Assembly: GCA_052035095.1 (NCBI GenBank)
Contig: JBPOHW010000007.1
Location: forward strand, 65,705 to 129,704
From: Candidatus Moraniibacteriota bacterium
Lineage (GTDB): Bacteria; Patescibacteriota; Minisyncoccia; Moranbacterales; UBA1568
Length of the DNA: 64,000 nucleotides
Reading direction: 5' to 3'
The notes below the pieces were generated by a model that did no database searches, was not told the DNA's origin, and saw only the letters and a list, made by a program, of their open reading frames with translations. Below, piece by piece: positions 40,018 to 63,613 of this stretch (positions within the stretch are counted from its first letter, which is position 1; every line of letters starts with the position of its first letter). A program made the translations under genes and the position numbers.

Positions 40018-40974
40018 TCATTCCGCATTCTCCATTCCTCTGCCCTTCCCATGAAATTTCTCATGCACTTCGCGAAGTCCTTCGTCGGTTACGTGGGTGT
40101 AAATCTGCGTCGTCGTGATGGATGAGTGCCCGAGGAGCGCCTGGACGCTTCGAATATCGGCGCCGTTTCGCAAGAGATCGGTCGCGAAGCTATGCCGGAG
40201 TGTATGCGGATGAACCGACTTCATAATGCCGGCTTTGGTCGCGAGACGCGCCACAATGCGTTCGACCGTCCTTACCGTGATACGGAGATCATCGCGCGCT
40301 GTTTTCCGGGTGAAACCCTTGGTCGTTGAAACAAAAAGTGCCGGGTCGATGTCTTTCCTCACCTCGAGATACGAAGAAATCACCGCGCGCGCCCGATCAG
40401 AAACAAAAACCATTCGTACCTTGCCGCCCTTGCCGCGCACACTAAACTCGCCGGTTTCGAGATTGACCGACTCCCGATCGAGACCAACCAATTCCGAAAC
40501 GCGAAGTCCCGATGAAAAAAGGAGTTCGAGGAGCGCGCGATCCCGACAAGCAACTTCGCTTTTCCCTTCCGCCACGGCAAAAAGCCGCTCCAATTCTTCC
40601 GGTTCCAAAAAATCCACCTGCCGCTCAGGCACCTTTGCCATTTCGATTCGCTCCGGCTCCGCCGAGGCGATTCCCTCTTTCGCGAGGTAGCGCAGGAACC
40701 CCCGAAGGACGATGCCGTGATAATTTTGGGTGATTTTCTTGAGTTCACCGCCTCGGACAGTTTGTTTCCGATTCAAAAAAATCCGATATTTTCGAATCAT
40801 GTCAAGGGTAATGTCTTTCGGGTCTTGAATTTTCCCGAAACGGAAGAAATCGCGGAGCACCCGGTCATAACTCTCGACCGTTTTGGGTGAACGACCCCGT
40901 TCTATCTCCACATATTCGAGAAATTTCATCAGACAAGCGGCGATGGTCGGCATACGAAGAAAAAGAAAAAACAA
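40018..40974 (-). CDS. tyrosine site-specific recombinase, XerC/XerD family
   Basis: C-terminal catalytic motifs ..RHSFATDLL.. and LLGHSSITTTQIYTHV. Confidence 0.85.
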   Translation of the reverse strand: MFFLFLRMPTIAACLMKFLEYVEIERGRSPKTVESYDRVLRDFFRFGKIQDPKDITLDMIRKYRIFLNRKQTVRGGELKKITQNYHGIVLRGFLRYLAKEGIASAEPERIEMAKVPERQVDFLEPEELERLFAVAEGKSEVACRDRALLELLFSSGLRVSELVGLDRESVNLETGEFSVRGKGGKVRMVFVSDRARAVISSYLEVRKDIDPALFVSTTKGFTRKTARDDLRITVRTVERIVARLATKAGIMKSVHPHTLRHSFATDLLRNGADIRSVQALLGHSSITTTQIYTHVTDEGLREVHEKFHGKGRGMENAE

Positions 40975-41269: not shown

Positions 41270-42379
41270 TTGCAGAGAAAATGTGTTGTTTGCTTTAAAC
41301 AACACAAAACTGTTCGAGTTCTTCATCTGTTCCGTCAATATTCAGCGCTCACCGTTGTCGTATCGAGCGCTTTTTTGGTAACCGGAACCAATATCGCCTC
41401 ACAGGAAAAGCCGGGGGGTATTCTTTCCGGCTATTTCCATACCCAAAACACCGCCGTTCCGGAAGCGAAGTTCGCTCACAAAGAAGAAAAGAAAGAAAGC
41501 CTCTCACTCGTGCCGCTTGCGGTCGCTTCAAATACCGTCGATCCGGACGCAAAACTCGAAGACCCCTCTGTCATCGCAAACCCCAGCCTCATCATCGCCT
41601 CTTCCGACCTCTCTCCGGTGATCCAAAAAGACCCGGAAGAAGAAGGTGGCGTCACTATCTACACCGTTCTCGAAGGCGATACCGTAAGCGGCATCGCTCA
41701 AAAGCACTCCATCACCACCAACACCATTCTCTGGGCAAACGACCTCGCCAATGTGGATGAAATTCGTCCGGGCGACCAAATCTTCATTCTTCCGGTTGCC
41801 GGACTCAAGCACATCGTCGCGGAGGGCGACACCATAGAGAGTATCGCCAAAAAATACAAGGGAGACAAAGATCGCATCATCGCCTTCAACGAGCTTCCGG
41901 CAAATGGACGTCTTGAAACAGGCGAGGAGATCATCATTCCCGACGGCTCCAAGGAAATTCCAACACCGCCCGCTTCCGGTGGCATTCTGGATCGGCGCCA
42001 ATACGCAACCTCAACCGGCGGCACCGCGACCGATATTTCCGGTTGGCGCACCCCCGAAGGCAAAGCCGGCACCGGACACAAGTTTCCCTACGGCTACTGC
42101 ACCTGGTACGTCGCCTCAAAGCGCTATGTCCCCTGGGGCGGCAATGCCGGTACCTGGCTCTACAACGCGAAGTCCCTCGGATACAAAACCGGAAAAACAC
42201 CCCGCGTAGGAAGCATTGTCGTCACTACCGAAAACCGCTACTACGGCCACGTCGCCCTCGTCGAGAAGGTTTCAGGCGGCGAAATCACCGTGAGTGAAAT
42301 GAACTATGTCGGCTGGAGCAAAACCAATCGCCGCACCCTCTCCGCGAGTAGCCGAAGTATTAAGGGATATATATATTAA
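41270..42379 (+). CDS. secreted peptidoglycan hydrolase: two LysM domains + C-terminal CHAP domain
   Basis: LysM repeats (YTVLEGDTVSGIAQKH.., HIVAEGDTIESIAKKY..), CHAP Cys/His (..GYCTWYV.., ..YYGHVALV..). Confidence 0.85.
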   Translation: MQRKCVVCFKQHKTVRVLHLFRQYSALTVVVSSAFLVTGTNIASQEKPGGILSGYFHTQNTAVPEAKFAHKEEKKESLSLVPLAVASNTVDPDAKLEDPSVIANPSLIIASSDLSPVIQKDPEEEGGVTIYTVLEGDTVSGIAQKHSITTNTILWANDLANVDEIRPGDQIFILPVAGLKHIVAEGDTIESIAKKYKGDKDRIIAFNELPANGRLETGEEIIIPDGSKEIPTPPASGGILDRRQYATSTGGTATDISGWRTPEGKAGTGHKFPYGYCTWYVASKRYVPWGGNAGTWLYNAKSLGYKTGKTPRVGSIVVTTENRYYGHVALVEKVSGGEITVSEMNYVGWSKTNRRTLSASSRSIKGYIY

Positions 42380-42802
42380 TCGCTCAACTTCGATGTTTCT
42401 CAAAAGCCGCCACTTGGCGGTTTTTGTTTTTTTTAAAAACACTCCTTCCTCCCCATCCTTTCAGTTTTCCTGTTTCATTTTGTTCACATCCTGTGGATAA
42501 CCCGGTATTTTCCCGCGCGAAACTCTTGTATTCACCTGCGGGAAACCCATAAGAAATTCTGCATAACTCCACCCCACCTCCCCACAGACACACACGTCAC
42601 CGAGAATCCCAAATCTATCTTTAAGCATCACCCCTCAGAAAATCCTTTCTTAAAACAGTATTCCTCTCTTTTCAACTTTTCCACCGGACTAATAGTAATA
42701 ATATTTATATTTTAAAAAATATATTCAATACCATAGAGAGAGGGTGAAGAATGAAGAACCCACCTTACGCAGTTACTGAAATAAGAGCTAAAAACCTAAC
42801 CC

Positions 42803-42947
42803 GTCATACCCGCGAAGGCGGGTATCCAGGTTCCATTCGTCTTCAGTAAATATATTACAAGATTTTGTTCGTTGGGTGATTATATTCAGCAGGTGGTGAC
42901 TACCTGCCTGCCGGTAGGCATGGGCTTCCCGCCTTCGCGAGAATGAC
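42803..42947. repeat. MITE-like element, family B, copy 1 (about 145 bp; terminal inverted repeats GTCAT(A/T)CCCGCGAAGGCGGG(T/A)ATCC; internal CTGCC..GGCAG palindrome)
   Basis: second copy at 46828-46978; read directly. Confidence 0.7.
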
Positions 42948-42982
42948 GAAAAGAAAGACGGTGTTTAAGATGAGTAAATTTC

Positions 42983-45007
42983 TTGACGTGTACTTTTTGT
43001 GGTATACTATTTTCAGAAAAATGTTTTTGTCTTTCGTGTGTGAATGAGCGTTCCAAAATAAAAAGATCGTTTCTCTTTCGATTGAGTCTTTTCTTTAAGA
43101 ACCACCCCGTTCTGCTCTTTGTGACGCTCTCGGGGTGTTTTTTGTTGCTGCCGTATGCATCTTACGCTGGAATATGGGATACTGTTTCTCAACCAATTGT
43201 AACGGGAGCGAAGTATTTAGTATATGCTTTTTATTGGTTTTTCTCTCTTTTTGTAAATTTAGCGTCAGCGCTTTTTGTATGGGCGATTGACACGAAAACG
43301 TTTTCGGATCTCATGAATAACGCGGCTATATATACCGTATGGCTTACGGTGCGGGATTTTTGTAATATTTTCTTTATTCTCGTTCTTCTCTTTTCCGCTT
43401 TTGCGACCATCTTTCAGCTTGAGAGGTATGAATACAAGAAAACGATTCCCATGCTCATTCTCATGGCGCTTCTCGTGAATTTTAGCTTCCCGATATCGCG
43501 CTTCGTGATTGATCTTGCGAATGTTCCGATGTATTTCTTTGCACAGAATACGGTCGGGGAAAGTGGGAATATTAGTAGTCTCTCGAGTGGTCTTTTGGGC
43601 GCGTCAAATATACGTGGCGTGATACTTCCCAATTCGCAATCGCCCGATAAAGATATTACTGATTACGATTTTGTGCATTTGCTTGTGGCGGCTACATGTA
43701 TGTTTCTTTTTGGAATTTCGTTTTTTGTGCTGGCGCTTCTTATGTTGATTCGCATGATTGCATTGGTGATATTGGTGATGTTTTCTCCGATTGGATTTGT
43801 GGGAATGATTACGCCGGCACTCCATAAGTTTGCCCATGATTGGTGGGACAAACTCTTTAAATGGGCATTCTACGGGCCGATAGCGGTGATGCTTGTTTTG
43901 GTGGCGCTCGTCGTTATGAAGGCGGCCGGATCAGTGAGTACTACCATGAAGCCGCTCGCTGGTGACAGTGTGAGTAATGACTTTCTTTCTTCCGCCCTTT
44001 TCCTTGCTATTCCCATTGTCCTCTTCTGGATCGCTATCACGCAGGCGGAGAAGTATAGCAATGATATGTCCGGCTTGGGGATAAAGTGGGGGTCGAATAT
44101 AGGGCGAAAGATGGGGGGATGGATGCGACAAGGAACATGGGGTGCAACCAAATGGACGGCAAAAGCCCCATTTAAAGGTGTTGATAATCTTTCGGGGAAT
44201 ACAATTTCCGGGACAGCGCTTGGAATACGGGAGGCATGGAGAAATAGGCAGTCGGCATGGTGGGGCGGAAGTGATATTGATAAGAGAAAGAAGCAGGTTC
44301 AGGATAGCGTTTCTTCTGCATTGAAGAGGAAAGGGACAAGTACACAGGAAGTTCAAAAGAAAGTTTCTGAGCACGAGAAAGAGCATACAACGGAAACAGA
44401 GCTACGAAGACTTGTTGACCAAAACAAAGACGTTGCCGCGGCTATGGTTCTTGCGAAACAGGGGAAGCTTACGAGTGAGGAATTTACAAAAGTTCGGGCA
44501 ACCTTGGATGCAAGTGATCCGAAGAGTGAGCAGGTTATTAATCTTCTTGAAGGAAAGGTGAAGGAGAAACGGTTGGATCTTGTTATGAATTACAAAATGG
44601 GTACAAATGAGGTGAAAGATGAAATAGCAAAGAAGCGAGTTGCTAATCCAGCCTTGAGTGCGGATGATGCTCGTGATGAGGTTTACAAAGAGGTTGTTAG
44701 GAAGGAAATGGCGAAAATAAATCCCTCAAAATGGAGGGAGCAGAACCTTGAAGAGATGTTTAGTCTTGGGAAAGATGCAAGTGGAAGCGAAAGGCAATAT
44801 TCGGTTATTAGGGATGTGCATGGAAATGTGACTGATATTGCAGAGGGTGGAGTTATTATTAACACGAAAGAATCTCAAGAGTTGAAAGCGAGAATTTCAG
44901 GTGCACAGGAAGCATTTAATCGTCATTCATCAAAAAATAAAGATAAAATAATTGACGATATAAGTGGTGATAACTTCGATGCTGGAAGAAAGACGGGTAT
45001 TTGGTAG
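42983..45007 (+). CDS. VirB6/TrbL-like polytopic membrane protein with long charged C-terminal domain
   Basis: N-terminal about 390 aa with 6-7 TM segments typical of VirB6/TrbL; hydrophilic K/E-rich C-terminal 280 aa; clustered with VirB3/VirB4 homologues. Confidence 0.5.
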   Translation: MTCTFCGILFSEKCFCLSCVNERSKIKRSFLFRLSLFFKNHPVLLFVTLSGCFLLLPYASYAGIWDTVSQPIVTGAKYLVYAFYWFFSLFVNLASALFVWAIDTKTFSDLMNNAAIYTVWLTVRDFCNIFFILVLLFSAFATIFQLERYEYKKTIPMLILMALLVNFSFPISRFVIDLANVPMYFFAQNTVGESGNISSLSSGLLGASNIRGVILPNSQSPDKDITDYDFVHLLVAATCMFLFGISFFVLALLMLIRMIALVILVMFSPIGFVGMITPALHKFAHDWWDKLFKWAFYGPIAVMLVLVALVVMKAAGSVSTTMKPLAGDSVSNDFLSSALFLAIPIVLFWIAITQAEKYSNDMSGLGIKWGSNIGRKMGGWMRQGTWGATKWTAKAPFKGVDNLSGNTISGTALGIREAWRNRQSAWWGGSDIDKRKKQVQDSVSSALKRKGTSTQEVQKKVSEHEKEHTTETELRRLVDQNKDVAAAMVLAKQGKLTSEEFTKVRATLDASDPKSEQVINLLEGKVKEKRLDLVMNYKMGTNEVKDEIAKKRVANPALSADDARDEVYKEVVRKEMAKINPSKWREQNLEEMFSLGKDASGSERQYSVIRDVHGNVTDIAEGGVIINTKESQELKARISGAQEAFNRHSSKNKDKIIDDISGDNFDAGRKTGIW

Positions 45008-45040
45008 GAATTAAGTTTTTTTCGTGTAAATTTCTTATCT

Positions 45041-46333
45041 ATGATATCTTCCGGTACCATGAATAGTCAGTTCATAAATAGATCGGTAACCCCTGTTTTG
45101 GTTTGGACTGAAAAAAATCCGGATGAGGAAACTCGAGAGCAAGTGATTGCGAATCATGAGCGATTTCGAATGCTTCCTCCGGAAGCGAAGTATAAGCTCG
45201 GATTTCAGTATACTCCCGAGATTATCAAAAAAATTGGGGAAGACTTCAGTTTGGATCCGCTGAAAATGGCGAGTATTGCTCGTGCGGTACGGAATTTCTA
45301 TTTTGGCGATCTTCCAAAAGAGAAAATTGAAGGATTCTTAATGGAAGAAATGGAAATATCTTCGGAACAAGCTCAAAAAATAGCCTTGATTGTTGATCAA
45401 AAAATCATCAGTGCGCCGATTCCCAAAGATGTTTCTGAACAGACAGTAGAAATTCCCCTTCTCGACGCCCTCTCAAAGTATCAGCGGTTGTCGGAGCAGG
45501 CGGTGACGGAGGATAGAATTGTGGTGAAGGGAGAGGGTCAGCCGGTACGGGGGTCGATTCGCAATTGGCTCCGGCACTATCGGGACGTGGTGGGGATTCG
45601 GAAGCACTCCGCGATGGAACGGGGACAGTTTTTGTTCCAGGGGGAGAATACCAAGCGACTCTCCGCGCCGGATCGGGAAAAGCTCTCACTTCTCTTTCGT
45701 TCGCTCGATGAGAATATGCCGATTTCAATCGATGTCGAGCGACAGGAGGTGATATTCCCAGCATTTGAAGAAAAGTCGAACGCGAATCAAGCGCCTCTCG
45801 AGGAGAAAGTGACGCCGACGCTTGGCACCTCATTTCGTCCGATCGAAAAGTTCCCCGCCTCTTCCACTCCCATAAAGAAGGCGCTCGAGTGGAAGACAGA
45901 GAAAACAGCGATACCGCCGCTTTTTGGGAATGTTCCCGCGCCACCACGACCCGAGATTACGTCATCGAAATCGGTCGGCGTTTCTGCTCCGGTATACGCG
46001 ATTCCCCCTATTCCTGTGTCGCCGAGCGGAGATGCTCGCGCGGAGGGAGGTAAGAGTGGAGGAATGCCTGCGGCGCAAGAAGGAATGTCGGTCTCGTCGC
46101 CGTTTTCCGCGCCGGGAAATATGAGTTTTAGTTCAAGTCACGTGCTTCCCCACGAGAAGGCAGCTCTTCCTGCGGAGCCGCCGCAAGAGGGAGTATCAAG
46201 CGAAGGACATCCTCCTTCAAGGGGTCCCGAGGCAATCAGTGTCATTAAGCCTCGTGGCGATCAGTTTGGCTTTCGCGGGAAGTCGTCGGGAGATGACTTC
46301 GATGCTCCTCGTGTGGTAAACTTACGGGGTTAG
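45041..46333 (+). CDS. hypothetical protein with Pro-rich low-complexity C-terminus
   Basis: 430 aa, no recognisable motif. Confidence 0.4.
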   Translation: MISSGTMNSQFINRSVTPVLVWTEKNPDEETREQVIANHERFRMLPPEAKYKLGFQYTPEIIKKIGEDFSLDPLKMASIARAVRNFYFGDLPKEKIEGFLMEEMEISSEQAQKIALIVDQKIISAPIPKDVSEQTVEIPLLDALSKYQRLSEQAVTEDRIVVKGEGQPVRGSIRNWLRHYRDVVGIRKHSAMERGQFLFQGENTKRLSAPDREKLSLLFRSLDENMPISIDVERQEVIFPAFEEKSNANQAPLEEKVTPTLGTSFRPIEKFPASSTPIKKALEWKTEKTAIPPLFGNVPAPPRPEITSSKSVGVSAPVYAIPPIPVSPSGDARAEGGKSGGMPAAQEGMSVSSPFSAPGNMSFSSSHVLPHEKAALPAEPPQEGVSSEGHPPSRGPEAISVIKPRGDQFGFRGKSSGDDFDAPRVVNLRG

Positions 46334-46379
46334 AAAAACTGACAACGTACAACGAACAACAGGAATCCTTTGTTTTATT

Positions 46380-46823
46380 GTGGTTGTTTGTTGCCAGTTG
46401 ATTGTTGTCTGTATTTTTCCTATGCTCTTCAATGTTCCGCAATTCATCGATGTGGAGGATAAGATCGCGGGACCGCTTACTGTGAAGCAGGTGTTGTGGC
46501 TTATCGGGATGGGGGCGGTGCTGTTTATCGTATGGACTTTTTTTGATACGCCAACGTTTTTCGTCCTTTCCGTTCCTATTATCCTCATTTTCGCGCTGTA
46601 TGCCTTCTATCGACCGTACAATCAGTCTATGCTTTCCTTTACCATTCACGGGGTGATGTTTTTTTTTCGACCCAAGCTCTATACATGGGATCGACCGGGA
46701 GTAATGAAACGACCGGATCCGAAACCGGTGGAAAATAAACCGATATCGGAATCCCCTCGACCGCTTTCCTTTGAAGAAATACAAGCATTGGCGAAAGTGG
46801 TGGATAGAGGTGGGAAGCGATAG
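46380..46823 (+). CDS. PrgI/VirB3-like small two-TM protein of type IV secretion systems
   Basis: 147 aa; N-terminal ..FIDVEDKIAGPLTVKQVLWLIGMGAVLFIV.. resembles PrgI family; positioned immediately upstream of VirB4. Confidence 0.5.
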   Translation: MVVCCQLIVVCIFPMLFNVPQFIDVEDKIAGPLTVKQVLWLIGMGAVLFIVWTFFDTPTFFVLSVPIILIFALYAFYRPYNQSMLSFTIHGVMFFFRPKLYTWDRPGVMKRPDPKPVENKPISESPRPLSFEEIQALAKVVDRGGKR

Positions 46824-46827
46824 CACT

Positions 46828-46978
46828 GTCATTCCCGCGAAGGCGGGAATCCCTGCCTTCCGGCAGGCAGGCAGGTGTCACAATGCCCAATGTAACATCT
46901 TTACAAATGAAGTCTGTAAACATTTTCTGTAAGCTGGTGGAGCCTGGTTCCCTCCCGCTGAGGCGGGACGGGGATGAC
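46828..46978. repeat. MITE-like element, family B, copy 2, filling the virB3-like/virB4 intergenic gap
   Basis: GTCATTCCCGCGAAGGCGGGAATCC at 46828 and inverted partner ending 46978. Confidence 0.7.
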
Positions 46979-46980
46979 GA

Positions 46981-47697
46981 TTGGATGAATTCTTTTTATC
47001 TATGGAAACCCTGAATCCTCAAAAATCCGTGTCGAAAGATTCGAATTCGAGCACTCAGCGCTACGTAAATGTAGAAGAGGTGCGCGATGGCGTTATCGTG
47101 CTCAAAAACGGCGCGCTTCGTTCGGTGCTTCTGGTGTCGTCGCTCAACTTCGATCTCAAGTCCGCCGAGGAACAGGACGCGATCATTTTGCAGTACCAAA
47201 ATTTTCTCAATTCGCTCGACTTTCCCGTGCAGGTGGTCATTTCTTCGCGCCGATTCGATATTCGCCCGTATATCGAGCTCCTCAAGGATAAAGAAAATCA
47301 CCAGCGAAATGAACTCCTTCGGCTTCAAATATCGGAGTATCAGAACTTTATCAAGAATCTCGCCGAGGTATCGAATATTATGTCGAAGCTTTTCTATCTC
47401 GTGATACCGTTTTCGCCCGTCGAGGACAAAGAAAAAGGCCTCTTTCACAGTTTGACGACGCTCTTTAATCCGTCGGGGGCGGTTTTGGAACGGCGGGAAT
47501 TTTTCGAAACCTACAAAAATCAGCTCTGGCAGAGGGTGGACCACGTGAGTTTCGCGCTCTCCCAAACGGGAGTGCGAGTCGCGCCGCTCAATACCGAAGA
47601 GCTCATCGAACTCCTCTATAATTCCTACAACCCTTCACTTTTTACGACACGTCTCACCAAAAACATCGAAGCGATTGATTTGGAGATAGAACGATGA
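46981..47697 (+). CDS. VirB4/TrbE N-terminal domain protein (separate ORF)
   Basis: ..VNVEEVRDGVIVLKNGALRSVLLVSSLNFDLKSAEEQDAIILQYQNFLNSLD.. matches CagE/TrbE/VirB N-terminal domain. Confidence 0.55.
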   Translation: MDEFFLSMETLNPQKSVSKDSNSSTQRYVNVEEVRDGVIVLKNGALRSVLLVSSLNFDLKSAEEQDAIILQYQNFLNSLDFPVQVVISSRRFDIRPYIELLKDKENHQRNELLRLQISEYQNFIKNLAEVSNIMSKLFYLVIPFSPVEDKEKGLFHSLTTLFNPSGAVLERREFFETYKNQLWQRVDHVSFALSQTGVRVAPLNTEELIELLYNSYNPSLFTTRLTKNIEAIDLEIER

Positions 47698-47708
47698 GGG
47701 AATGACGG

Positions 47709-49571
47709 TTGTGGTTTGTGGTAGTATTCTGTGGTTGTTGTCAATACCATATGCGTGTTCCATTTCTCGCTCCTTCAATGGGCGAACAAGATGAAATTTT
47801 ACAGAGTGAAATGCTCTACCAACGAGGCGTCGCGCGCGTTCGTGATTTGATCGCGCCCTCCGCTATCAAGGTGAGTGCAAATTCACTGCAGGCGGGGGAG
47901 ACGGTTACGCGGACACATTTTATCATCGCGTATCCGCGTTATCTCAATACCAATTGGTTCGCGCCGGTCGTGAATCTCGACTTTCCTATGGATGTCGCGA
48001 TGTTTATCCACCCGGTCGATACGCGGGATATTTTGAAGAGTCTCCTCAAATCTGCGACGCGCGTCGAGTCATCCATTCAGATGGAGGCCGAGGCGGGAAA
48101 GGTGCGCAGTCCCATTCTGGAAACCGCGCTTCAGGATATCAATGAGCTTCGCGACAAACTTCAACAGGGAACGGAAAAGTTTTTTCGCTTCGGCATCTAT
48201 ATCGCGCTCTACGCCTCGTCGATCGAGGAATTGAATCGTATGAGCCGGTCAATCGAATCGCTCCTTGAAGCGCAACTTGTCTACGTGAAGCCGGCGGTGA
48301 TGCGGATGGAGCAAGCATTCACCTCGACGCGGCCGATTGCCATGGATGAGCTTGATGTCGCCAATAATCTCAACACCGCGCCGCTCTCGACAACCTTTCC
48401 CTTTGTTTCCGCCGATCTCTCGTCTAATGACGGCATCCTCTACGGGATCAATCGCCACAACAACAGCCTCATCCTCTTCGATCGCTTCAAGCTGGAGAAC
48501 GCTAATATGGTGATTTTCGCGAAATCGGGAGCGGGCAAGAGTTATTTCGTGAAGCTCGAAATTTTGCGGTCGATGATGTTTGGTACGAGCGTGATCGTGA
48601 TTGATCCGGAGAATGAATACAAGCACCTTTCAGAAACCGTGGGGGGCTCGTTCATTCATATGAGTCTCAATTCTCCGTTTCGTATCAATCCCTTCGATCT
48701 CCCGAAGAAGCGCGATGATCAAGAGGACTTTGAGGGACTTTTGCGAAGCAATATCGCCACGTTGATCGGACTGCTTCATCTGATGCTCGGGAGCGTGACG
48801 CCGGAAGAGGACTCTATCCTCGATCAGGCGCTCCGCGAAACGTATGCCGTGCGGGATATTACGGGAAGAACCGACCTTGCGACGCTCACGCCAAGCTCCT
48901 TTCCCACGATGACCGATCTCTACGAGGTGTTGCGGAATATGGAGGGGACGGAATCGCTTGCCGCGCGGCTTGAGAAGTATACGCAGGGGATTTTTTCGGG
49001 ATTTTTGAATCACGCGAGCAATATTTCGGTTCAGAACCAAATGGTGGTGTTCAATATTCGCGACCTCGAAGAAGAACTCCGTCCGATCGCTATGTATCTC
49101 ATCCTGCACCTTGTGTGGAATGAAATGCGTTCCGAAATGAAACGCCGCCTTGTTGTGGTGGATGAGGCGTGGATTATGATGCAAAACGACGATGCGGCGA
49201 GCTTTCTTTTCGGTATCGCGAAGCGCGCGCGGAAATATTACTGTGGACTTACTACGATTACGCAGGACATCAGTGATTTTATGGGATCGCGCTACGGCAA
49301 GCCCATCGTGACCAACTCTTCGCTCCAGCTCCTTTTGCGTCAATCGGTTTCCTCAATCGACGTGGTGACGGAGACGTTCTATCTCACGGATCACGAGAAA
49401 TTCCTCCTTCTGGAGAGCGCGGTCGGCGAGGGAATTTTCTTTGCCGGGTCAAAACACGTCGCGATCAAAGTGGTCGCTTCTTACAGTGAAGATCAAATCA
49501 TCACTTCAAATCCAGAACAATTGGTCGAGATCGAAGCCGCGAAAAAGGAATTTGACGAACAGGGAATGTGA
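47709..49571 (+). CDS. VirB4/TraC-like type IV secretion ATPase (ATPase domain)
   Basis: Walker A VIFAKSGAGKSY, IDPENEY, Walker B/DEAW motif LVVVDEAWIMM; in different frame from preceding N-domain ORF. Confidence 0.7.
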   Translation: MWFVVVFCGCCQYHMRVPFLAPSMGEQDEILQSEMLYQRGVARVRDLIAPSAIKVSANSLQAGETVTRTHFIIAYPRYLNTNWFAPVVNLDFPMDVAMFIHPVDTRDILKSLLKSATRVESSIQMEAEAGKVRSPILETALQDINELRDKLQQGTEKFFRFGIYIALYASSIEELNRMSRSIESLLEAQLVYVKPAVMRMEQAFTSTRPIAMDELDVANNLNTAPLSTTFPFVSADLSSNDGILYGINRHNNSLILFDRFKLENANMVIFAKSGAGKSYFVKLEILRSMMFGTSVIVIDPENEYKHLSETVGGSFIHMSLNSPFRINPFDLPKKRDDQEDFEGLLRSNIATLIGLLHLMLGSVTPEEDSILDQALRETYAVRDITGRTDLATLTPSSFPTMTDLYEVLRNMEGTESLAARLEKYTQGIFSGFLNHASNISVQNQMVVFNIRDLEEELRPIAMYLILHLVWNEMRSEMKRRLVVVDEAWIMMQNDDAASFLFGIAKRARKYYCGLTTITQDISDFMGSRYGKPIVTNSSLQLLLRQSVSSIDVVTETFYLTDHEKFLLLESAVGEGIFFAGSKHVAIKVVASYSEDQIITSNPEQLVEIEAAKKEFDEQGM

Positions 49572-49629
49572 GGAGGAATAGGGAAGAGGAAATGGGATCG
49601 GTTACTTCATATATTACCTTTGATTTTGT

Positions 49630-50388
49630 ATGGCAATTGCGCAACCGATTACCAAGGAACAGGATATACGCGATCAAAAGGAGCGCGAAAAAAAAGAGCA
49701 AGCATTTTTGAAGCAAGAAAAAAATTCGATGCCGACGGCGAATGACGCGCGATATGATCGTCCGGCGGCAAACGACGCGAATTTTGACGAATCGGAAAGA
49801 GAACGACTTCAACAAGAGGCGAATATGCTTCGGAATGCCCAACGGCCGGCGAGAATCCTTCAAGAAGAAGCTGAGATTTCCGAAATGGAAGAAGGAATGG
49901 GGAGTGGAAACGGAGATATGAAAAGAAAGACGGAATCGGTGAAGCTCTCATCGTATTCGGCGCCCTTGATAGTCGCAGTTTTCAAGGATCTTATGGATTA
50001 TACAGTGGTGCTCGCGCTTCCCGGCGTTGGCACGGTCCTCAGTTTTTGCGCGAATATCTTGATACTCCTTCTCCTCTTCTTCCCGAAGCGCCGCTACAAG
50101 ATCGCTTCGAATGCGCGGATTGCCATTATCGATGCCTTTATCTTGATCGGGCTGGTTCCGCTTGAGGGATTGATGTTTCCCTTTAATCTTCTTCCCTTTA
50201 CGATTGCGGCGGTTGGTATGATCTACTCCGTCGACAAAAAATTTGTCGCCAAACGAAACGCGAAAACATTCGATAAAAAAGAAATGAAGGGGAAGCTGTC
50301 AGCCGTGCTTCGCCAGGTCTATGCGGATCGAGCGGTACCAATGAAAGACAAGAGCGGGGTTCGAGAACGAATGCGCGAAGCGTTTTGA
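49630..50388 (+). CDS. hypothetical membrane protein (charged N-terminus, 3-4 TM C-terminus)
   Basis: 252 aa; no known motif. Confidence 0.4.
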   Translation: MAIAQPITKEQDIRDQKEREKKEQAFLKQEKNSMPTANDARYDRPAANDANFDESERERLQQEANMLRNAQRPARILQEEAEISEMEEGMGSGNGDMKRKTESVKLSSYSAPLIVAVFKDLMDYTVVLALPGVGTVLSFCANILILLLLFFPKRRYKIASNARIAIIDAFILIGLVPLEGLMFPFNLLPFTIAAVGMIYSVDKKFVAKRNAKTFDKKEMKGKLSAVLRQVYADRAVPMKDKSGVRERMREAF

Positions 50389-50413
50389 TTTCCTCGCTCT
50401 TGTTTCTCAGTTA

Positions 50414-51115
50414 TTGAATACTATGTCTCAATATTCAACAACTATCCGTATGCTTCTTACCGACCGTCGATTTCTTGCGGCGCATATGGTGGCGTTCGCG
50501 GGAATGGCCTTGGTTGCGTTCTTTCCTGGAGCGGAAACTATTCCAGCAATGCTCATGCTTCTTCTTGCGGGCTACGGTCTTTTGCCGGCGATATTTATTC
50601 ACTTTGTTCTGAAGGAATCGATTGCCTCGTACGGATTTCATTGGGGGAGGGGGAGATTCTTTCCGACTCTCGGACTTTTGATTTTGATGATTACGATAGC
50701 GCTCGGCGCGGTTTGGTCGTTTCTTTCCTTTACGGACGCGGGGCTTCGATATGTTGACGGAACGAATATCGCGTTGCTTCGCGGGAGCTTTTCGGCATTT
50801 TTGATTTTTTCCGCGCTGTCGGTACCGGTTCTTTTTTTGACGGAAGCGTTCTTTCGGGGATTTCTTCTCGGGATATGGCGTCGGTATTTCGGGATATGGA
50901 GCGTGGTTTTATCGGTTGTCGCGACACTTTTTCTCTCATGGATTCGAGTGAGCGATGTATCGAGTCACGCTTTTTTCGGAGAAATGACCATCCTCGCCAT
51001 TGGTTCGATATGCGCCTCGATCATTGCTTTTTTCTCGGGATCGTACTTGCTCTCCTTTTGTTTTTTCTTTTTTTTTGATACACTGTCAACAGTGTTTGCG
51101 ATGATACTTTCATGA
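50414..51115 (+). CDS. CPBP (CAAX protease / Abi) family intramembrane metalloprotease-like protein
   Basis: multi-TM; motif LTEAFFRGFLLG (EExxxR-like) and downstream His-containing motifs. Confidence 0.45.
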   Translation: MNTMSQYSTTIRMLLTDRRFLAAHMVAFAGMALVAFFPGAETIPAMLMLLLAGYGLLPAIFIHFVLKESIASYGFHWGRGRFFPTLGLLILMITIALGAVWSFLSFTDAGLRYVDGTNIALLRGSFSAFLIFSALSVPVLFLTEAFFRGFLLGIWRRYFGIWSVVLSVVATLFLSWIRVSDVSSHAFFGEMTILAIGSICASIIAFFSGSYLLSFCFFFFFDTLSTVFAMILS

Positions 51116-54100
51116 AACAAAAAAAATACATTTTTTTCCTCAAGGCGCTTTTCCTCTCGGTATTTACGATGATGCAAATCTTCTTGCCGGGCACGATTGC
51201 GTTCGCTATCACCGTGGATAAGGTGACCGATAATGTTTTTGATGATGCTGCCAATTTTTTTGAGCGGCGATACCACCTCAATAAGGGGAGTCTTCAGGAT
51301 CAGGGGGAAAATTTTAACGTTTCGTCGCAAAAGGGGCAAGCGCCGCAGGTACTTCTCTATTTCACTCCGTCGGATCCGAAGCCGGGCGAGGAGGTGGAGG
51401 CGCGCGCGTTTCCGGAATTTTTCGGGAACTCAACCGACACACTCTACTATACGTGGTACTTGAAGCGAAAGCGGTGTTCCTTGACTGATCGCCTTACTAA
51501 TAGCGATGCTGATAAAGAGAAAAAGCTTCTCTGTGATCGCAATGATGATGACAAGATAACCGTCGAAGACTGGAAAATCGAAGCGATGCAGGCGGTTGCC
51601 GCTCGAGATTTTGACTCCACCTGCGCTTTGAACGGGAGTCTCTCTGAAGAAGAGCGCGAAGAATGCGCCGAAAATATGTATAATCCGGACGCGAAGAGTC
51701 GAATCAATGTTTCGGGATCGAAAGGAACCGATCGAGATAAGGATGGGTATATCGCGTCGGTTGGTGGGGATGGTCGATCGGGGTTTGCCGGGGATTGCTC
51801 GCCGTCGGATGGTGGCGAAGAGGAGAGTGATGATGGGAGCGCCGACCCTTTTGATCCGACATCGGAGGATACCGGTGCAGGTCGGCTCTATGCGTCGTCG
51901 ACAATAGGTGGGACGACGCGAAGCGTGACGCTTTCGTCGAGCCAAACGTTTTATGAAATTGCCACCGGATTCAGCGATACTAACTCCGAATTGTGTTATG
52001 AGATCTACGGCGTAGGAATAGGTGAATCGCATGGCGAAGGATCATGTAGCGGAAATGACAACTGGAGGGCGGCGACCGAGTACATTTCCTCCAGTGATTC
52101 TTTGATATATGGCGGCGGAACATGGACGCGTACCATTGCTCCCGTGAGTGCCGTTTTTCCTGCGGGGCACACGTATCATTTGTTTTGGCGCGATTCAAGT
52201 TCTCTCTCGGCGGCGAAGCTGACGGTTTCGAGTGACGGGTCAAGTGGGAGTGGCAATACTTGTACGGGCGAGAGCGTGTGTTATATCCACGATTTTGGAG
52301 ATGGGTACAACTATGAACTTCCGTCGTGTCAGCATCTTTTCCCGGATAACTACAAGATGGATGGAACGGGCGATATTCGGCGCGCGGGCGATATCGGCGC
52401 CGATGACTGCAGTCCCGGGGTGTGCGCCGAGTTTCCGATCGATGAGGAACGCTTCTGGCGAACCGACCCGGAAGATCCGAGTACCGCGCAGAACGGCACC
52501 AAAGACGAAGCGAATCTCGCGGGCTTGGGAGCAGATACCTTCCGCTGGGTGTACGCGCCGGAGGACAAGGTAGGCGTCGCGGTCGAGGGGGTCTCTATGT
52601 ACAATACTAAGTATGATAATTCGAGCGCCATGGTGATGTGGGCGCTTCCGAAGAATAAGTGCGATGTGACAGGGAAGTCGACGCGGACAGAAACGATAAA
52701 AGGATATAGTGTTGCTATAAAAACCGCGACGACGAACATCAATGACTGCCTCGAGGATAATCTTGTAGATCCGACCGAAGGCGGACAGGCGGAAAATGTC
52801 GATCTTTCGCTTTCATATACGCCAAACGAGCCCTCCGCCAAGTTGATTCCCTGGGGAGAAAACGCGGCGAGTGAGAAGTCACTCGCGGAAACGGGGGATA
52901 TGCTGGTGGTAAACGCCGCCTCATCCAACGCGAATCGAGATGCTTCATTTGCAAATTATCTCTGGCGCGTTCAAGCGAGTGGGAGCGGAACCTTTGATAC
53001 TCGTTTCAGCGATGAAAATGTATGGGTGGATATCACGAAGGATCTCCAAATAGCGAAAAATATCAGCGCGACGAGCGGAAACGGGGTGAATTCCCTCTCC
53101 ATTAACCTCAATCTCAATGAGAAAGAATTTTATAGCGATAAGCTCAAGGGGACCGTGCCTGGATTCGCTCGATACTTTAACGACGATGTCGCCTATTTCC
53201 GTATTTCCGCGAGCGCGACGGAGAATTTCTCCGGACAGACGAGCCGGAGCGGATCGGGGTCCGTGGTAGTCAAGGTCGTCGCCAACAAATCGATCGATGT
53301 TTACCATATAAAAACGGAAACTGATGCTTCGACGGGACTCGTGCGTGTCGCGCTCGATACGGATACCCCTCTGTGTCCCCTCTCGGGAAGCGCGGGGCGT
53401 GTCGGTACCTCTCAGCAAGTAATATGTCCGGTACTGAAAAATCAAGTGGTCGGTGTCTTCCTCTCAACTTCTTCGGGGGAGATTCGCGATTATGCCTGGA
53501 CGCTCGACGGCAAGGCACTCGCCTGCTCGAAACACGTCTCGGAGGACTGCGACGACAGCCGACAGGGAGCGACCAACTTTTTCCCCGTGTCGGGAGAAGT
53601 AGGAGATCTCTATACGCTCTCGGTGGTGGCAAATAATGCCGAGACGGGCAGATCCTTTACGGTGACACGCCGATTTCAAGTCGTGAGTCCCGACGCGGAT
53701 CTCGTCTCGGAAGACGGGGAAACCGCCTGGCCGAAGATTTTGGGGAGCTATACCAATCTTGACGGGTCGACATCGGATGATGTGAGTAAGACCTCATTTG
53801 AAGGCATTCCCGGGTCGACTGCGAAATTTTCCGCGGTCTTCCGTCCGGAAATACTGGGAACCTTTATTCTTGACGGCATCAAAGCGGGCGACGACCAAAA
53901 TGAAATGATTTGGTCAATTAACGGCAAGCCCTTCAAGTGGAACGATACCGGACTCTCGCTCGCGCTCGACGGCACTGTGGGCGATATCTATACCGTCACC
54001 CTCTCCGGCGCCTACAATCAGCCCCGCGAGCTCAGGAAAGCCCTCTATGATATCTGGAAAATATCTCCCTTTAATTCCGAAACCGTGCGGTTTTCGAAAG

Positions 54101-54294
54101 AGATACAAATTCGACTGGTAACTGCCGGAGAGAGTCCTTACGCGAAGGGAGGGGCAAATACTTTCTTTGCCTCGCTCATTTCCGCCGTGCCGCCTCTCGT
54201 GTTGTTCTCGGTTCGCCTCATCCTCTCGATGGGTCTCATTCTCCTCGTGGTCGGCGTCGCTTTTTCGGCAATGCCGGAGAGGAGACGGGAGTAG
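51112..54294 (+). CDS. giant secreted/surface protein (1060 aa) with N-terminal signal peptide and C-terminal TM anchor
   Basis: signal peptide ..FLPGTIAFAITV; Cys/Asp/Gly-rich extracellular region; C-terminal hydrophobic anchor. Confidence 0.55.
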   Translation: MKQKKYIFFLKALFLSVFTMMQIFLPGTIAFAITVDKVTDNVFDDAANFFERRYHLNKGSLQDQGENFNVSSQKGQAPQVLLYFTPSDPKPGEEVEARAFPEFFGNSTDTLYYTWYLKRKRCSLTDRLTNSDADKEKKLLCDRNDDDKITVEDWKIEAMQAVAARDFDSTCALNGSLSEEEREECAENMYNPDAKSRINVSGSKGTDRDKDGYIASVGGDGRSGFAGDCSPSDGGEEESDDGSADPFDPTSEDTGAGRLYASSTIGGTTRSVTLSSSQTFYEIATGFSDTNSELCYEIYGVGIGESHGEGSCSGNDNWRAATEYISSSDSLIYGGGTWTRTIAPVSAVFPAGHTYHLFWRDSSSLSAAKLTVSSDGSSGSGNTCTGESVCYIHDFGDGYNYELPSCQHLFPDNYKMDGTGDIRRAGDIGADDCSPGVCAEFPIDEERFWRTDPEDPSTAQNGTKDEANLAGLGADTFRWVYAPEDKVGVAVEGVSMYNTKYDNSSAMVMWALPKNKCDVTGKSTRTETIKGYSVAIKTATTNINDCLEDNLVDPTEGGQAENVDLSLSYTPNEPSAKLIPWGENAASEKSLAETGDMLVVNAASSNANRDASFANYLWRVQASGSGTFDTRFSDENVWVDITKDLQIAKNISATSGNGVNSLSINLNLNEKEFYSDKLKGTVPGFARYFNDDVAYFRISASATENFSGQTSRSGSGSVVVKVVANKSIDVYHIKTETDASTGLVRVALDTDTPLCPLSGSAGRVGTSQQVICPVLKNQVVGVFLSTSSGEIRDYAWTLDGKALACSKHVSEDCDDSRQGATNFFPVSGEVGDLYTLSVVANNAETGRSFTVTRRFQVVSPDADLVSEDGETAWPKILGSYTNLDGSTSDDVSKTSFEGIPGSTAKFSAVFRPEILGTFILDGIKAGDDQNEMIWSINGKPFKWNDTGLSLALDGTVGDIYTVTLSGAYNQPRELRKALYDIWKISPFNSETVRFSKEIQIRLVTAGESPYAKGGANTFFASLISAVPPLVLFSVRLILSMGLILLVVGVAFSAMPERRRE

Positions 54295-54322
54295 CGAGTA
54301 TTTTAGTATCTAGCAATGTCGT

Positions 54323-55606
54323 ATGAAATTTCTGAAACAGAGCGGGAAAATGTTCGTTTTTTTGTCTGTAATTGCGGTTGTCTTTGGTTTCTTTGGAAAT
54401 TTGTCTTTTGCTGCGGAACCAAACAGTGATATCACCTGCAATGCAAAGCCTCTTGACGGTGTCTGCAAGGAAGCGGGAAAGGAGTGTACGCCAGGTGCTG
54501 GATATCAAAAGTATGGGCATTGCGATAAGGTGGATGCGCCCTGCTGTGTGCCTGATGCGAATGTTCCGAAATCTGGATCAACACCCATTACGACCAAGAC
54601 TGAGTGTGAAGCCACGAAAGGATCTGATGGAAAGAATGCTTACTGTATAACGACGGTCGGTCAGAATTGCTCAACTTTTTCTTTGGATCAAATCGGAACA
54701 TGCGCCGACCTTGGTTCAGGCACGGCGTGTTGTGCTGCAAAGGGCACCCCTGTTCCTGGCGGTAGTACCTCGTCAACTCCTTCTTCTAGTGCTAGCTCGC
54801 TTCAGTATGCCCCACTTGAGAATTTGCCGGGGTTTGAGGGGGAGAGTGGGGACTTTGCGACGTATTTCAAAAATGTATATCTCTTGGCGCTCTGGATTGT
54901 GGGGATATCGGCGCTCTTTATGCTCGTCGTGGGCGGGTTCCTCTACCTCTCGAGCGCGGGGAATACGTCGACTCTGGGCTATGCCAAAAAGACGATCTAT
55001 GGAGCGCTCATCGGGCTCGTCATCGCGCTCATTTCATGGCTCCTCCTCAATACTATCAATGCCGATCTCACCAATTTGAAATTGAGTGGATTGTCGGGAG
55101 TAGCGGGACTAGGCGGTGGGTCGTCAACGACGACTACACCACCATCGGGAAATGCTGATCCGGAGGGATGCAAGAATTTGAAAAATCTCCGTTCTGACAT
55201 TGCAAATCAGTGTAATCTTGCTTCAAAAGAGTTGGTTGCCATGATGTCCTGCATGGAAGGAAAGGGTATAAAAAATACATGGACGTCAATTTCCGCCAGT
55301 AATATTGGGGGGGATCAAAATGCGGCGGCGGCGTGTTGCGGAGATTCGCGACCAGCTTCGTGTAAACATTCAAAAGTTACTTGCCATTATGGATGTACCT
55401 TTGGAACGAAGGGGCTTTCTTACGGAGTTGATATTGGAGGGTTAACGAGTGCATCGAGTGATGCTACCTTGTGCGCCGTAGCGAGTGCGGCTAAATCTTG
55501 CGGAGGGGGAAATATATGGGGGCCTCGGACACTAAGTTGCGGTGTGACATATCAGGATGGCCATAATGATCATCTTCATGTTAGTGTTTCTGGGTGCCCA
55601 CATTGA
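54323..55606 (+). CDS. Cys-rich secreted protein with central two-TM hairpin and C-terminal HxH-containing domain
   Basis: signal peptide; repeated Cys patterns; TM hairpin ..LALWIVGISALFMLVVGGFLYL..GALIGLVIALISWLLL..; C-terminal ..GHNDHLHVSVSGCPH. Confidence 0.5.
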   Translation: MKFLKQSGKMFVFLSVIAVVFGFFGNLSFAAEPNSDITCNAKPLDGVCKEAGKECTPGAGYQKYGHCDKVDAPCCVPDANVPKSGSTPITTKTECEATKGSDGKNAYCITTVGQNCSTFSLDQIGTCADLGSGTACCAAKGTPVPGGSTSSTPSSSASSLQYAPLENLPGFEGESGDFATYFKNVYLLALWIVGISALFMLVVGGFLYLSSAGNTSTLGYAKKTIYGALIGLVIALISWLLLNTINADLTNLKLSGLSGVAGLGGGSSTTTTPPSGNADPEGCKNLKNLRSDIANQCNLASKELVAMMSCMEGKGIKNTWTSISASNIGGDQNAAAACCGDSRPASCKHSKVTCHYGCTFGTKGLSYGVDIGGLTSASSDATLCAVASAAKSCGGGNIWGPRTLSCGVTYQDGHNDHLHVSVSGCPH

Positions 55607-55612
55607 TTTTTT

Positions 55613-56764
55613 ATGAAGAAGTTCTTCATCGCTACTTCCGTTCTTTTTGGAATTTTTCTCCTCTTTTTCCTCATATACAATTTTTTGTTCAAGCACAATC
55701 CGTTCGAGGGGAGGGTGCCCAATACGGCGGTGATACCAAATGAAACCGGATCGAGCAAAGAAGAGATAGAGGAAACGAAAGCAATCGCGAACGTGACGGA
55801 TGAGGAGGTGGTGGCGCCGATATTTGATGTCGAAGATCAGGCGATCCTCTATCTCGTGCCGGAAGAACAGGCGCTCAAAGAAACCTTCCTCGTGACCAAT
55901 GCGCCGCGCACGGTCGCGCGGTTCTCTTTTGTGCCGAGAAATATCATCTGGTCGCCGGATAGGAAGCGGGCGCTCGTCAAAAAGAGCGATACCGAATGGG
56001 CGCTCTTCACGCGCGAAAAAAAGGGAGAGGCGAATGAGGGTTCGCCCGTACAAATGCTGAAGCCCGGCATCGAAAGCCCCGCGTGGACGACGCTTGGGGA
56101 CAAGATTGTTTACAAATACTACGATCCGGCATTGGAAACGCGCACGCTCACCCTCGCGAATCCCGATGGGACGGATTGGGAGATGATCGGCGAGACGACA
56201 TTTCAGTTTTTGGAAATACAAGCGGTGCCGAAGAGTTCGCTCATTGCGTTTTGGAATTGGGGGAATGCTTTTGAGGAGACATCGCTCTCGGTTGTGGGGG
56301 CGATGGGGGGCGAAGTGAAAGAAATTTTTTCCAAACACTATGGCGTCGACTACGCGATCGCGCCAAATGGCAACACGATACTTTTGAGCAATACGATCGA
56401 AAAGGGTGGGACGGCGGTGACGCTTGCGACCATCAATGTAAAGGGTGGCAACTACCGTAATCTCGCCATCCCGACTCTCGCCGGAAAGACCGTCTGGGCC
56501 AAAAACAGTCGCGTGATTTACTACGCGCTCCCGGGCGCCATCCCCGCGGGGAGTATTCTGCCCAATGATTACTACCGGAAACCGATCCTGACTGCCGATA
56601 CGTTCTGGAAGATGGATATGGAGACGAATGAAAAATCTCGCCTTGTTGATCCGGCCGATATCGACCGGAGCTATGACGCCGAAAACCTCGTCCTCGATAC
56701 GGACGAGACCACGCTCTTCTTCCGCAATCGCCACGATGGGAAGATATACAAAATCAACCTCTGA
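55613..56764 (+). CDS. membrane-anchored hypothetical protein, probable beta-propeller (TolB-like) fold
   Basis: N-terminal TM; repeated ..DG..ILLSN/ IVYKYYD.. style beta-strand motifs; no catalytic motif. Confidence 0.4.
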   Translation: MKKFFIATSVLFGIFLLFFLIYNFLFKHNPFEGRVPNTAVIPNETGSSKEEIEETKAIANVTDEEVVAPIFDVEDQAILYLVPEEQALKETFLVTNAPRTVARFSFVPRNIIWSPDRKRALVKKSDTEWALFTREKKGEANEGSPVQMLKPGIESPAWTTLGDKIVYKYYDPALETRTLTLANPDGTDWEMIGETTFQFLEIQAVPKSSLIAFWNWGNAFEETSLSVVGAMGGEVKEIFSKHYGVDYAIAPNGNTILLSNTIEKGGTAVTLATINVKGGNYRNLAIPTLAGKTVWAKNSRVIYYALPGAIPAGSILPNDYYRKPILTADTFWKMDMETNEKSRLVDPADIDRSYDAENLVLDTDETTLFFRNRHDGKIYKINL

Positions 56765-63329: not shown

Positions 63330-63613
63330 ACGGTTTTTTCATTGGGTTAGAGGTCGGCGGGGTGCGCCGAAATCCTCCCCTCCTTCTTCCGAGAATATCA
63401 CCGTTTCGCCCCAATGAAAAGAGCCCGACGCGTTTTGCCCCGGGCTCTTTCGAGTGTGAAAAATTTTTTGAAATAAAATGGGAGTTGCCAAGATTGCAAA
63501 AATGAATTTTTCTCACACGTTTCGCGAATGCTGATCCGACGTTTCGTCCCGCCAAGGCGGGATTGCAATCTTGGCGTGCGTTGAAAATAAACTTTTGTTT
63601 TTGTTGGCTCTAT

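Follow-up and report, generated by a model that had tools for sequence, protein, structure and literature searches.

A 64,000-nucleotide stretch of contig JBPOHW010000007.1 from a Candidatus Moraniibacteriota bacterium (hereafter the window) carries, on the plus strand from about 42983 to 56764, a block of eleven closely spaced open reading frames (ORFs). This block very probably encodes a chromosomal, vertically inherited type IV secretion system (T4SS) of the Moranbacteria cell, belonging to the Patescibacteria lineage of monoderm systems that resemble the mating-pair-formation class MPF_FATA. The first five ORFs make up the interval 42983-49571, for which an annotation made earlier from the letters alone (the sequence-only reading) had proposed a T4SS-like module, probably not one for plasmid conjugation. 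The ORFs listed in that reading exist, and the interpretation is supported: the three components it named (VirB6/TrbL-like, PrgI-like and VirB4) pass independent tests. Judging from homologue names and the related loci, the source organism is a Candidatus Moranbacteria member of the Patescibacteria (candidate phyla radiation), with a reduced genome of the episymbiont type. VirB4 homologues with 71-100% identity derive from metagenome-assembled genomes, and the named ones among the 120 listed at this identity are Moranbacteria/Moraniibacteriota, Patescibacteria or unclassified bacteria.

Pfam models were run on 43 window ORFs, including all 29 ORFs of at least 300 amino acids (aa) except four located within confirmed genes, either on the other strand or in a different frame; NCBIfam models were additionally run on some. 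For synteny mapping, all window proteins were compared with the 10 kb on either side of virB4 in 80 species-representative Moranbacteria genomes. Identities and ratios of nonsynonymous to synonymous divergence (dN/dS) were obtained against the closest strain, L081. The recognizable T4SS components and the hydrolase gene beside them are the following (TM, transmembrane).

41270..42379, plus strand: peptidoglycan hydrolase with two LysM domains and a CHAP domain, in its own transcription unit
43040..45007, plus strand: VirB6/TrbL-like polytopic membrane protein with a hydrophilic C-terminal domain, 655 aa from GTG 43040 (ORF open from 42983)
46422..46823, plus strand: PrgI/VirB3-like two-TM protein, 133 aa from ATG 46422 (open from GTG 46380, 147 aa)
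47002..47697, plus strand: free-standing TrsD-like protein, corresponding to the extreme N-terminal part of canonical VirB4, 231 aa (open from TTG 46981)
47751..49571, plus strand: VirB4 ATPase, rest of the N-domain and P-loop C-domain, 606 aa (620-aa ORF open from 47709)
54323..55606, plus strand: pilin-domain protein, 427 aa, with a signal peptide, two Cys-rich modules, a T4SS-pilin two-TM domain and a Cys/His-rich C-terminal domain

The only universal T4SS protein is the VirB4-family ATPase. The window's VirB4 scored 348.7 bits on the NCBIfam model conju_CD1110 (cutoff 325; positions 185-734 of 752; E=6e-104) and 296 bits on the Mycoplasma integrated conjugative element (ICE) VirB4 model (E=4.5e-88), above its scores on F-type TraC (190 bits) and VirB4_CagE (133 bits). 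By these models, the protein appears closest to the VirB4s of monoderm (FATA) systems. Comparison with PDB entries gave E=1.3e-49 for 4AG5 (VirB4 C-domain) and 3.7e-8 for R388 TrwK, and the Pfam family P-loop_TraG matched at 3e-28. The sequence-only reading was right about the identity of this protein and about its motifs, namely Walker A (AKSGAGKS), IDPENEY (nt 48600-48620) and the DEAW motif (LVVVDEAW, nt 49149-49172), with Walker A and B both intact. Its dN/dS against L081 is 0.013.

That reading had treated 46981-49571 as one ORF and missed the TrsD-like part. VirB4 is in fact split into two ORFs in different frames, 46981/47002-47697 and 47709/47751-49571. In NCBIfam searches the first of these stayed below all cutoffs, with matches to VirB4_plasma (positions 92-233, E=8e-10), the TrsD/TraD family model NF041427 (E=7.9e-7), CD1110 (positions 2-118, E=2e-5) and TIGR00929 (positions 4-124), and in the three VirB4 models it matched N-terminal positions only. 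Because the two ORFs cover consecutive, non-overlapping positions on single VirB4 models, they are consecutive pieces of one canonical VirB4, as in pGO1 TrsD/TrsE, the first being a separate, TrsD-like homologue of its N-terminus. For the L081 orthologue of the TrsD-like protein, records list Pfam TraC-like (PF26593). Direct comparisons were uninformative: BLASTP of the TrsD-like protein against VirB4 gave E=0.08, and hhalign of narrow TrsD and VirB4 N-domain family profiles was negative (probability 0.2), so it is the NCBIfam models that provide the link. Searching PDB sequences with the TrsD-like protein found nothing.

We considered whether the two ORFs were a frameshifted pseudogene and rejected this, because the gene pair is kept in relatives (the TrsD-like gene is present in 78 of the 80 loci) and both members are under strong purifying selection (dN=0 and dS=0.10 for the TrsD-like gene against L081). 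VirB4 homologues of 770-881 aa were also considered as possible TrsD-VirB4 fusions. P0049 (857 aa), the only one tested, is not such a fusion, because it has no similarity to the 238-aa ORF.

The PrgI-like protein, proposed earlier as a 147-aa ORF, matched Pfam PrgI with 34.1 bits (gathering score 27; E=4.2e-8). Its L081 orthologue is called as a 133-aa protein with PrgI, and the gene is present in 76 of the 80 loci. It lies 0.9 kb upstream of virB4, as expected of a VirB3-like subunit. It does not stand immediately before virB4 as had been stated, because 46981-49571 consists of two ORFs and the TrsD-like one comes first.

The 674-aa ORF described as VirB6/TrbL-like indeed has seven hydrophobic segments within its first 350 aa, followed by a hydrophilic C-terminal part of about 300 aa. 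A TrbL/VirB6 Pfam match was obtained in 14 of 62 homologues (best E 4e-9), and TrbL_3 is on record for the L081 orthologue. The assignment as a putative VirB6/TrbL-like channel subunit thus draws on family members and on the predicted structure. Hydropathy alone gave no decision on membrane topology or on the side of the C-terminal domain.

The start codons adopted earlier for these genes were over-extended, and the VirB6-like, PrgI-like and VirB4 proteins probably start at GTG 43040, ATG 46422 and ATG 47751, respectively. For the VirB6-like gene, GTG 43040 is favoured because the family N-terminal consensus (MxxxxKxK and a hydrophobic stretch) fits there. The TTG at 42983 is probably no start codon but the -35 hexamer of a promoter-like element.

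42983..43010, plus strand: promoter-like element TTGACG-N16-TACTAT, from a promoter scan and between-genome conservation

The block AAATTTCTTGAC...TGTGGTATACT is kept in the window, L081 and the loci L001 and L004, where the adjoining spacer DNA is not kept. A fifth genome, L074, has a site similar to this element.

The sequence-only reading saw no pilin. The protein encoded at 54323-55606 scores above the cutoff of the VirB2-like family T4SS_pilin (PF18895; 27.5 bits against 26.6, aa 182-245), as do its relatives, with matches in 9 of 9 family members (best E 1e-7). A pilin-domain protein is thus present, although a 427-aa multidomain architecture is atypical for a pilin and polymerisation into a pilus is not implied. 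A PDB sequence search with this protein found nothing. Its C-terminal domain varies by lineage, being an SLT lytic transglycosylase in one relative (3.8e-13) and absent in some. In the window, an H...D...HxH pattern raised the idea that this domain is a LAS/M15-type zinc peptidase; no tool supported this, and it is a lead only. Large secreted proteins are present downstream of the module, as had been noted, and the last gene of the plus-strand block follows the pilin-domain gene.

55613..56764, plus strand: 383-aa protein with an N-terminal TM segment and a large extracytoplasmic domain

The 383-aa protein had no Pfam or NCBIfam match and was found by tblastn in 10 of the 80 loci only. Beside virB4, the pilin-domain and 383-aa genes could be detected only in the lineage of the window and in one other group, which has two or three pilin-domain genes in tandem. 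Such arrays stand downstream of the gene for a 1060-aa surface protein (described below) in L069, L077, L078 and L080, at about +5.7 to +9.4 kb from virB4. A narrow profile found no pilin-domain gene within 10 kb of virB4 in most of the 80 loci.

The LysM-CHAP protein (Pfam LysM 8.8e-20, CHAP 2.1e-19), which the sequence-only reading had missed, is a candidate cell-wall remodelling enzyme of the VirB1 type. It is syntenic with the module in 46 of the 80 loci, which are nearly all those reaching that far, and a terminator-like hairpin (42401-42426) lies downstream of its gene.

Further upstream, a tyrosine recombinase gene at 40018-40974 on the minus strand scores as XerC/XerD (247 and 244 bits), and a UvrD/PcrA gene is also present. 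The conserved order is UvrD, Xer (minus strand), LysM-CHAP, VirB6, the 430-aa protein, PrgI, TrsD, VirB4, the 252-aa protein, the CPBP-like protein and the 1060-aa protein, and it recurs in nearly every locus that extends far enough. This pattern indicates that the locus is chromosomal, old and inherited vertically, and not an island or mobile element. The variable insertion context of a mobile element was not seen: the UvrD, XerC/D and LysM-CHAP flanks recur in nearly all loci of sufficient extent. All core genes have dN/dS values of 0-0.24 against L081, which is purifying selection. The placement among core genes, already noted in the sequence-only reading, holds for UvrD, XerC/D, KsgA, PNPase, GyrA and FtsH; the accompanying statement that the module is bracketed by miniature inverted-repeat transposable elements (MITEs) is wrong, because one element lies upstream and one inside the module, and the 3' end has none. 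Housekeeping genes fill the rest of the window too (S1, TilS, FtsH, GyrA, PNPase, KsgA and tRNAs).

The absence of a relaxase and of VirD4, also claimed earlier, was borne out: no relaxase (MOB) and no coupling protein of the VirD4/TcpA type was found among the ORFs scanned. VirB5, VirB7, VirB9, VirB10 and VirB11 were not recognised.

Several observations weigh against assignment as a resident T4SS serving exchange with a host. The window's VirB6-like protein had no match in its own Pfam scan, and no VirB8-like bitopic subunit was matched by Pfam or NCBIfam among the module proteins (sequence models only); a divergent one may be among the 430-, 252- and 383-aa proteins. The window copy of the CPBP-like protein was below detection in its own Pfam scan and has the TEAFFRG motif only. 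Operon status is inferred from the short intergenic gaps (-4 to 58 nt, with a single exception of 157 nt), and a MITE-like element also sits inside the block. A coupling protein or relaxase could be encoded elsewhere in the genome; VirD4 homologues occur in many Patescibacteria genomes, mostly far from virB4 (PMC12102498). Function is inferred, and no substrate, effector or transport direction is known for any Patescibacteria T4SS (PMC11665869).

The alternative that survives best is a sub-case of this interpretation, in which the machine is a DNA or nucleotide importer, ComB- or Ced-like, that pulls host or environmental DNA into a nucleotide-auxotrophic cell. VirB4 has a match to the archaeal DNA-import ATPase CedB, a weak one at E=3.6e-15 and far behind its matches to conjugative VirB4s. 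The window lacks a relaxase and a type IV coupling protein (T4CP), and UvrD and Xer adjoin the module, though their adjacency is perhaps merely positional. An import role has been raised in the literature on the grounds that competence is dispensable and the T4SS essential in Southlakia (PMC11665869). Among the module's components, none was recognisable as DNA-binding or as a nuclease, no ComB- or Ced-specific partner was found, and we consider an importer unlikely.

A role in DNA conjugation is more improbable still. The block would then supply mating-pair formation for an active or decaying integrated conjugative element, and the relaxase, origin of transfer (oriT) and coupling protein of that element would lie beyond the window. 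The best VirB4 models are those of conjugative ATPases from Clostridioides CTn2 and Mycoplasma ICEs, the window contains an IS30 transposase and MITE-like elements, and VirD4 homologues are encoded elsewhere in many Patescibacteria genomes (PMC12102498). The tyrosine recombinase 2 kb upstream would also fit such an element, but by its scores it is XerC/XerD and, together with UvrD, part of the conserved synteny. There is no composition boundary except a flip in strand skew, the flanks are core genes, the core genes of the block are under strong purifying selection, and the pattern that would refute this reading, one chromosomal position shared by all relatives and no attachment sites, has already largely been seen. 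Only 103 of 3,035 Patescibacteria genomes were found to contain a relaxase, seldom in the vicinity of virB4 (PMC12102498).

The idea that there is no secretion system at all and that a generic FtsK/HerA-type P-loop ATPase has unrelated membrane-protein neighbours could appeal to the Pfam matches of VirB4 to DUF87/HerA and AAA_10, to its weak CagE_TrbE_VirB match (E=0.019) and to the lack of a Pfam match for the VirB6-like protein, but it is already refuted, because the NCBIfam VirB4 equivalog (CD1110) cutoff is passed where HerA reaches E=0.0035, 4AG5 is matched at E=1e-49, and PrgI, the TrsD-like ORF, the VirB6 fold and the pilin domain are present and syntenic.

As a resident T4SS, the system might work as follows. 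VirB4 and the TrsD-like protein would power assembly and transport at a VirB6/VirB3 channel in a single membrane. The LysM-CHAP hydrolase would open the peptidoglycan, possibly helped by the C-terminal domain of the pilin protein. The outward, host-facing part would consist of the pilin-domain protein together with the anchored multi-immunoglobulin (multi-Ig) protein. Such a machine may serve contact-dependent exchange of proteins or other macromolecules with a host cell, whichever the direction of transport, rather than plasmid conjugation.

Four further genes of the block are conserved with these components.

45041..46333, plus strand: 430-aa soluble protein with a conserved 250-aa N-terminal domain and a Pro/Ser-rich tail, always between VirB6 and PrgI
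49630..50388, plus strand: 252-aa membrane protein; N-terminus charged and variable, 3-TM core conserved
50423..51115, plus strand: CPBP/Rce1-like intramembrane protease homologue with 7 TM segments, 233/230 aa
51112..54294, plus strand: 1060-aa surface protein; signal peptide, Ig-like beta-sandwich chain, C-terminal TM anchor and basic tail

Pfam and NCBIfam gave no matches for the 430-, 252-, 383- and 1060-aa proteins or their families. The 430-aa protein, which has no hydrophobic segment, occupies the same position in 71 of the 80 loci; its family counts at least 769 representative clusters at E<=1e-3, and no Pfam match was found in 25 members and 10 distant representatives. The 252-aa protein, with the invariant core motifs KDLLD, LPGIGT and VEG..FGLNFLP, is present in 46 of the 80 loci at +1.8 to +2.5 kb from virB4, and no Pfam match was attributable to members of its family. 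For the CPBP-like protein, Pfam Rce1-like (PF02517) matched 9 of the 30 members of a mixed alignment, A8 (best E 2.5e-6), and we attribute these nine matches to the 16 members of the CPBP-like family in it. The stop codon of its gene overlaps the start of the 1060-aa gene by 4 nt.

The 1060-aa protein is strongly conserved, with many invariant Cys residues, is found in 71 of the 80 loci and has a dN/dS of 0.04 against L081. All its homologues are unnamed Moranbacteria proteins without Pfam domains, and the family appears restricted to this group. An exact-sequence look-up returned no record. The AlphaFold2 model (pLDDT 82.1) consists of a chain of Ig-like beta-sandwich domains, and Foldseek related it to CEA, titin, RPTP-sigma and complement C5 (E 2e-11 to 1e-8). 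On this predicted structure, the protein looks like a candidate surface adhesin or stalk.

Two genes stand out in the comparison with L081, the VirB6-like gene and the pilin-domain gene. The former has dS 0.44 and dN 0.11 (dS is about 0.07-0.19 for most genes), and the divergence falls solely within three segments of the membrane domain, aa 41-120, 201-240 and 321-360 (window 43160-44060); its C-terminal 300 aa are about 100% identical. In the pilin-domain protein, the C-terminal domain (aa 241-427, window 55040-55606) is replaced (23-65% identity) and the rest is identical. Outside these two hot spots, the block is 96-100% identical to L081 at the protein level. The pattern looks like recombinational exchange of exposed parts, and the VirB6 membrane segments and the outer domain of the pilin protein are likely places of host or phage interaction.

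Two MITE-like elements of one family lie just upstream of the block and inside it.

42802..42948, no strand assigned: MITE-like element A, about 147 bp, with 26-nt inverted ends GTCATxCCCGCGAAGGCGGGxATCC
46826..46975, no strand assigned: MITE-like element B, of the same family in opposite orientation, between the PrgI and TrsD-like genes

Element A, 35 bp upstream of 42983, is absent from L081, and a 91-bp block of element B is missing there. Elements that occur twice, measure about 150 bp, have 26-nt inverted ends and are missing or incomplete in L081 show the features of a MITE, and a search with the end motif would be expected to give 0 matches by chance. A lone CCCGCnnnnGCGGG hairpin with the same core as the MITE ends lies at 63548-63561, near the end of the window. 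Among the core genes, an IS30-family transposase is encoded at 25290-26339 on the minus strand (NCBIfam 233.6 bits, cutoff 80).

GC skew is negative over the left 42.5 kb and positive over the right 21 kb of the window (1-64000), independently of gene orientation. The flip, in the region 42380-43040, falls in the 603-bp spacer upstream of the VirB6-like gene. A single perfect DnaA box on the minus strand (42492-42500) lies in this spacer, as does an AT-rich stretch at about 42690-42735, and over 360 bp its identity to the closest strain is about 95%. Only 2 of 41 loci, those of the two closest species, share the flip, and dnaA lies outside the window. From these features, the spacer could be an origin of replication (oriC) or an inversion breakpoint.

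Downstream, Wzy-like and glycosyltransferase genes converge on the block. The minus strand at 56671-59563 encodes two Wzy_C (O-antigen ligase-like) membrane proteins in tandem, and the first of these ORFs (56671-58308) shares about 90 nt with the 3' end of the 383-aa gene. L001, L002, L004 and L081 have the same arrangement. Within the region of the ORF at 56671-58308, a 28-35-nt perfect-palindrome repeat, GTACGGGCGAATAATTATTCGCCCGTAC, occurs at 57370-57404 and 57928-57962, the copies being 523 nt apart, and there is a weaker copy at 56024; this repeat family differs from the MITE-like elements. Elsewhere in the window, a low-GC stretch (10001-12000; 0.36 against about 0.50 elsewhere) without any ORF of at least 150 aa lies just upstream of two tRNA genes.

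Compared with the MPF_FATA systems of monoderm bacteria (pGO1 TrsD/TrsE, C. difficile CTn2 CD1110 and pCF10 PrgH/PrgI/PrgJ/PrgK), the locus shares a VirB4 scoring above the CD1110-family cutoff, a TrsD-like N-terminal piece encoded separately as in pGO1, a PrgI-type VirB3, a VirB6-like polytopic protein and a CHAP-domain hydrolase, and it likewise has no outer-membrane core (VirB7/9/10). It differs in being fixed in the chromosome with conserved flanks, not carried by a plasmid or ICE, in having no relaxase, oriT or coupling protein, in carrying a pilin-domain gene, which the Gram-positive systems do not, and in having no recognisable VirB8-like (PrgL/TcpC) subunit or PrgB-type adhesin. Sequence identity to the diderm T4SSs of the R388/VirB type (TrwI/VirB6, TrwK/VirB4) is about 10%; unlike those, the locus has a split VirB4 and an 'extended VirB6' with an extra C-terminal domain of 300 aa.

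The closest likeness is to the T4SSs described in Patescibacteria. In a survey of 3,035 Patescibacteria genomes (Quiñonero-Coronel et al. 2025, PMC12102498), most VirB4s formed one clade nested in MPF_FATA, with TrsD, PrgI/VirB3, VirB6 and VirB2-like pilins near virB4, and in Paceibacteria VirB1-like hydrolases, some with LysM, were associated with virB4. Relaxases were rare, T4CPs mostly distant and a VirB8-like subunit rarely found, and the loci were often near dnaA, ksgA and the origin (PMC12102498). The present locus resembles this clade in being chromosomal, in its VirB4 with a TrsD-like protein, PrgI/VirB3 and VirB6, in its nearby VirB2-like pilin-domain gene and LysM-type hydrolase, in the lack of a relaxase or T4CP nearby, and in having ksgA in the neighbourhood and a possible link to a replication origin, although dnaA itself is not in the window. 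A counterpart in Southlakia epibionticum, SEML1_0006-0019, is a Gram-positive-like T4SS with pilins in which neither a relaxase nor a coupling protein is recognisable (Wang et al. 2023, PMC10633639). That Saccharibacteria system is essential for epibiotic growth, where comEC is dispensable (PMC10633639; PMC12857230), and it is the only T4SS of the Patescibacteria kind tested genetically. It has an array of small pilins, whereas the present locus has a single 427-aa multidomain pilin-domain gene.

We found no description, for the Patescibacteria clade, of the order-wide set formed by the 430-aa, 252-aa, CPBP-like and 1060-aa proteins. The possibility that the outward half of the Moranbacterales T4SS is built from undescribed, lineage-specific parts, namely the 3-TM protein, a CPBP protease translationally coupled to the multi-Ig protein, and the pilin-domain protein, is put forward tentatively, as a doubtful proposal. 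If it were true, the CPBP protease would process or sort the anchored 1060-aa protein like a dedicated sorting enzyme, the multi-Ig protein would be a host-contact adhesin or stalk absent from the published survey, which detected no adhesins in the phylum (PMC12102498), and the cell-wall-active C-terminal domain of the pilin protein would be exchanged between strains.

Patescibacteria make up a large share of bacterial diversity, and reviews give the function of their T4SS as unknown (PMC11665869; PMC12857230). The 430-aa, 3-TM, CPBP-like and multi-Ig proteins are candidates for the missing host-facing and substrate-handling parts. The locus fits the published Patescibacteria T4SS class feature by feature; the class is already known, with its architecture and the conclusion drawn here both in print for the phylum (PMC12102498; PMC10633639), and the locus adds no new principle to it. 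The accessory gene set and the variation hot spots are possibly new at the level of the lineage, and as a Moranbacteria example the locus is clean and fully syntenic, has a split VirB4 and includes a defined promoter-like site.

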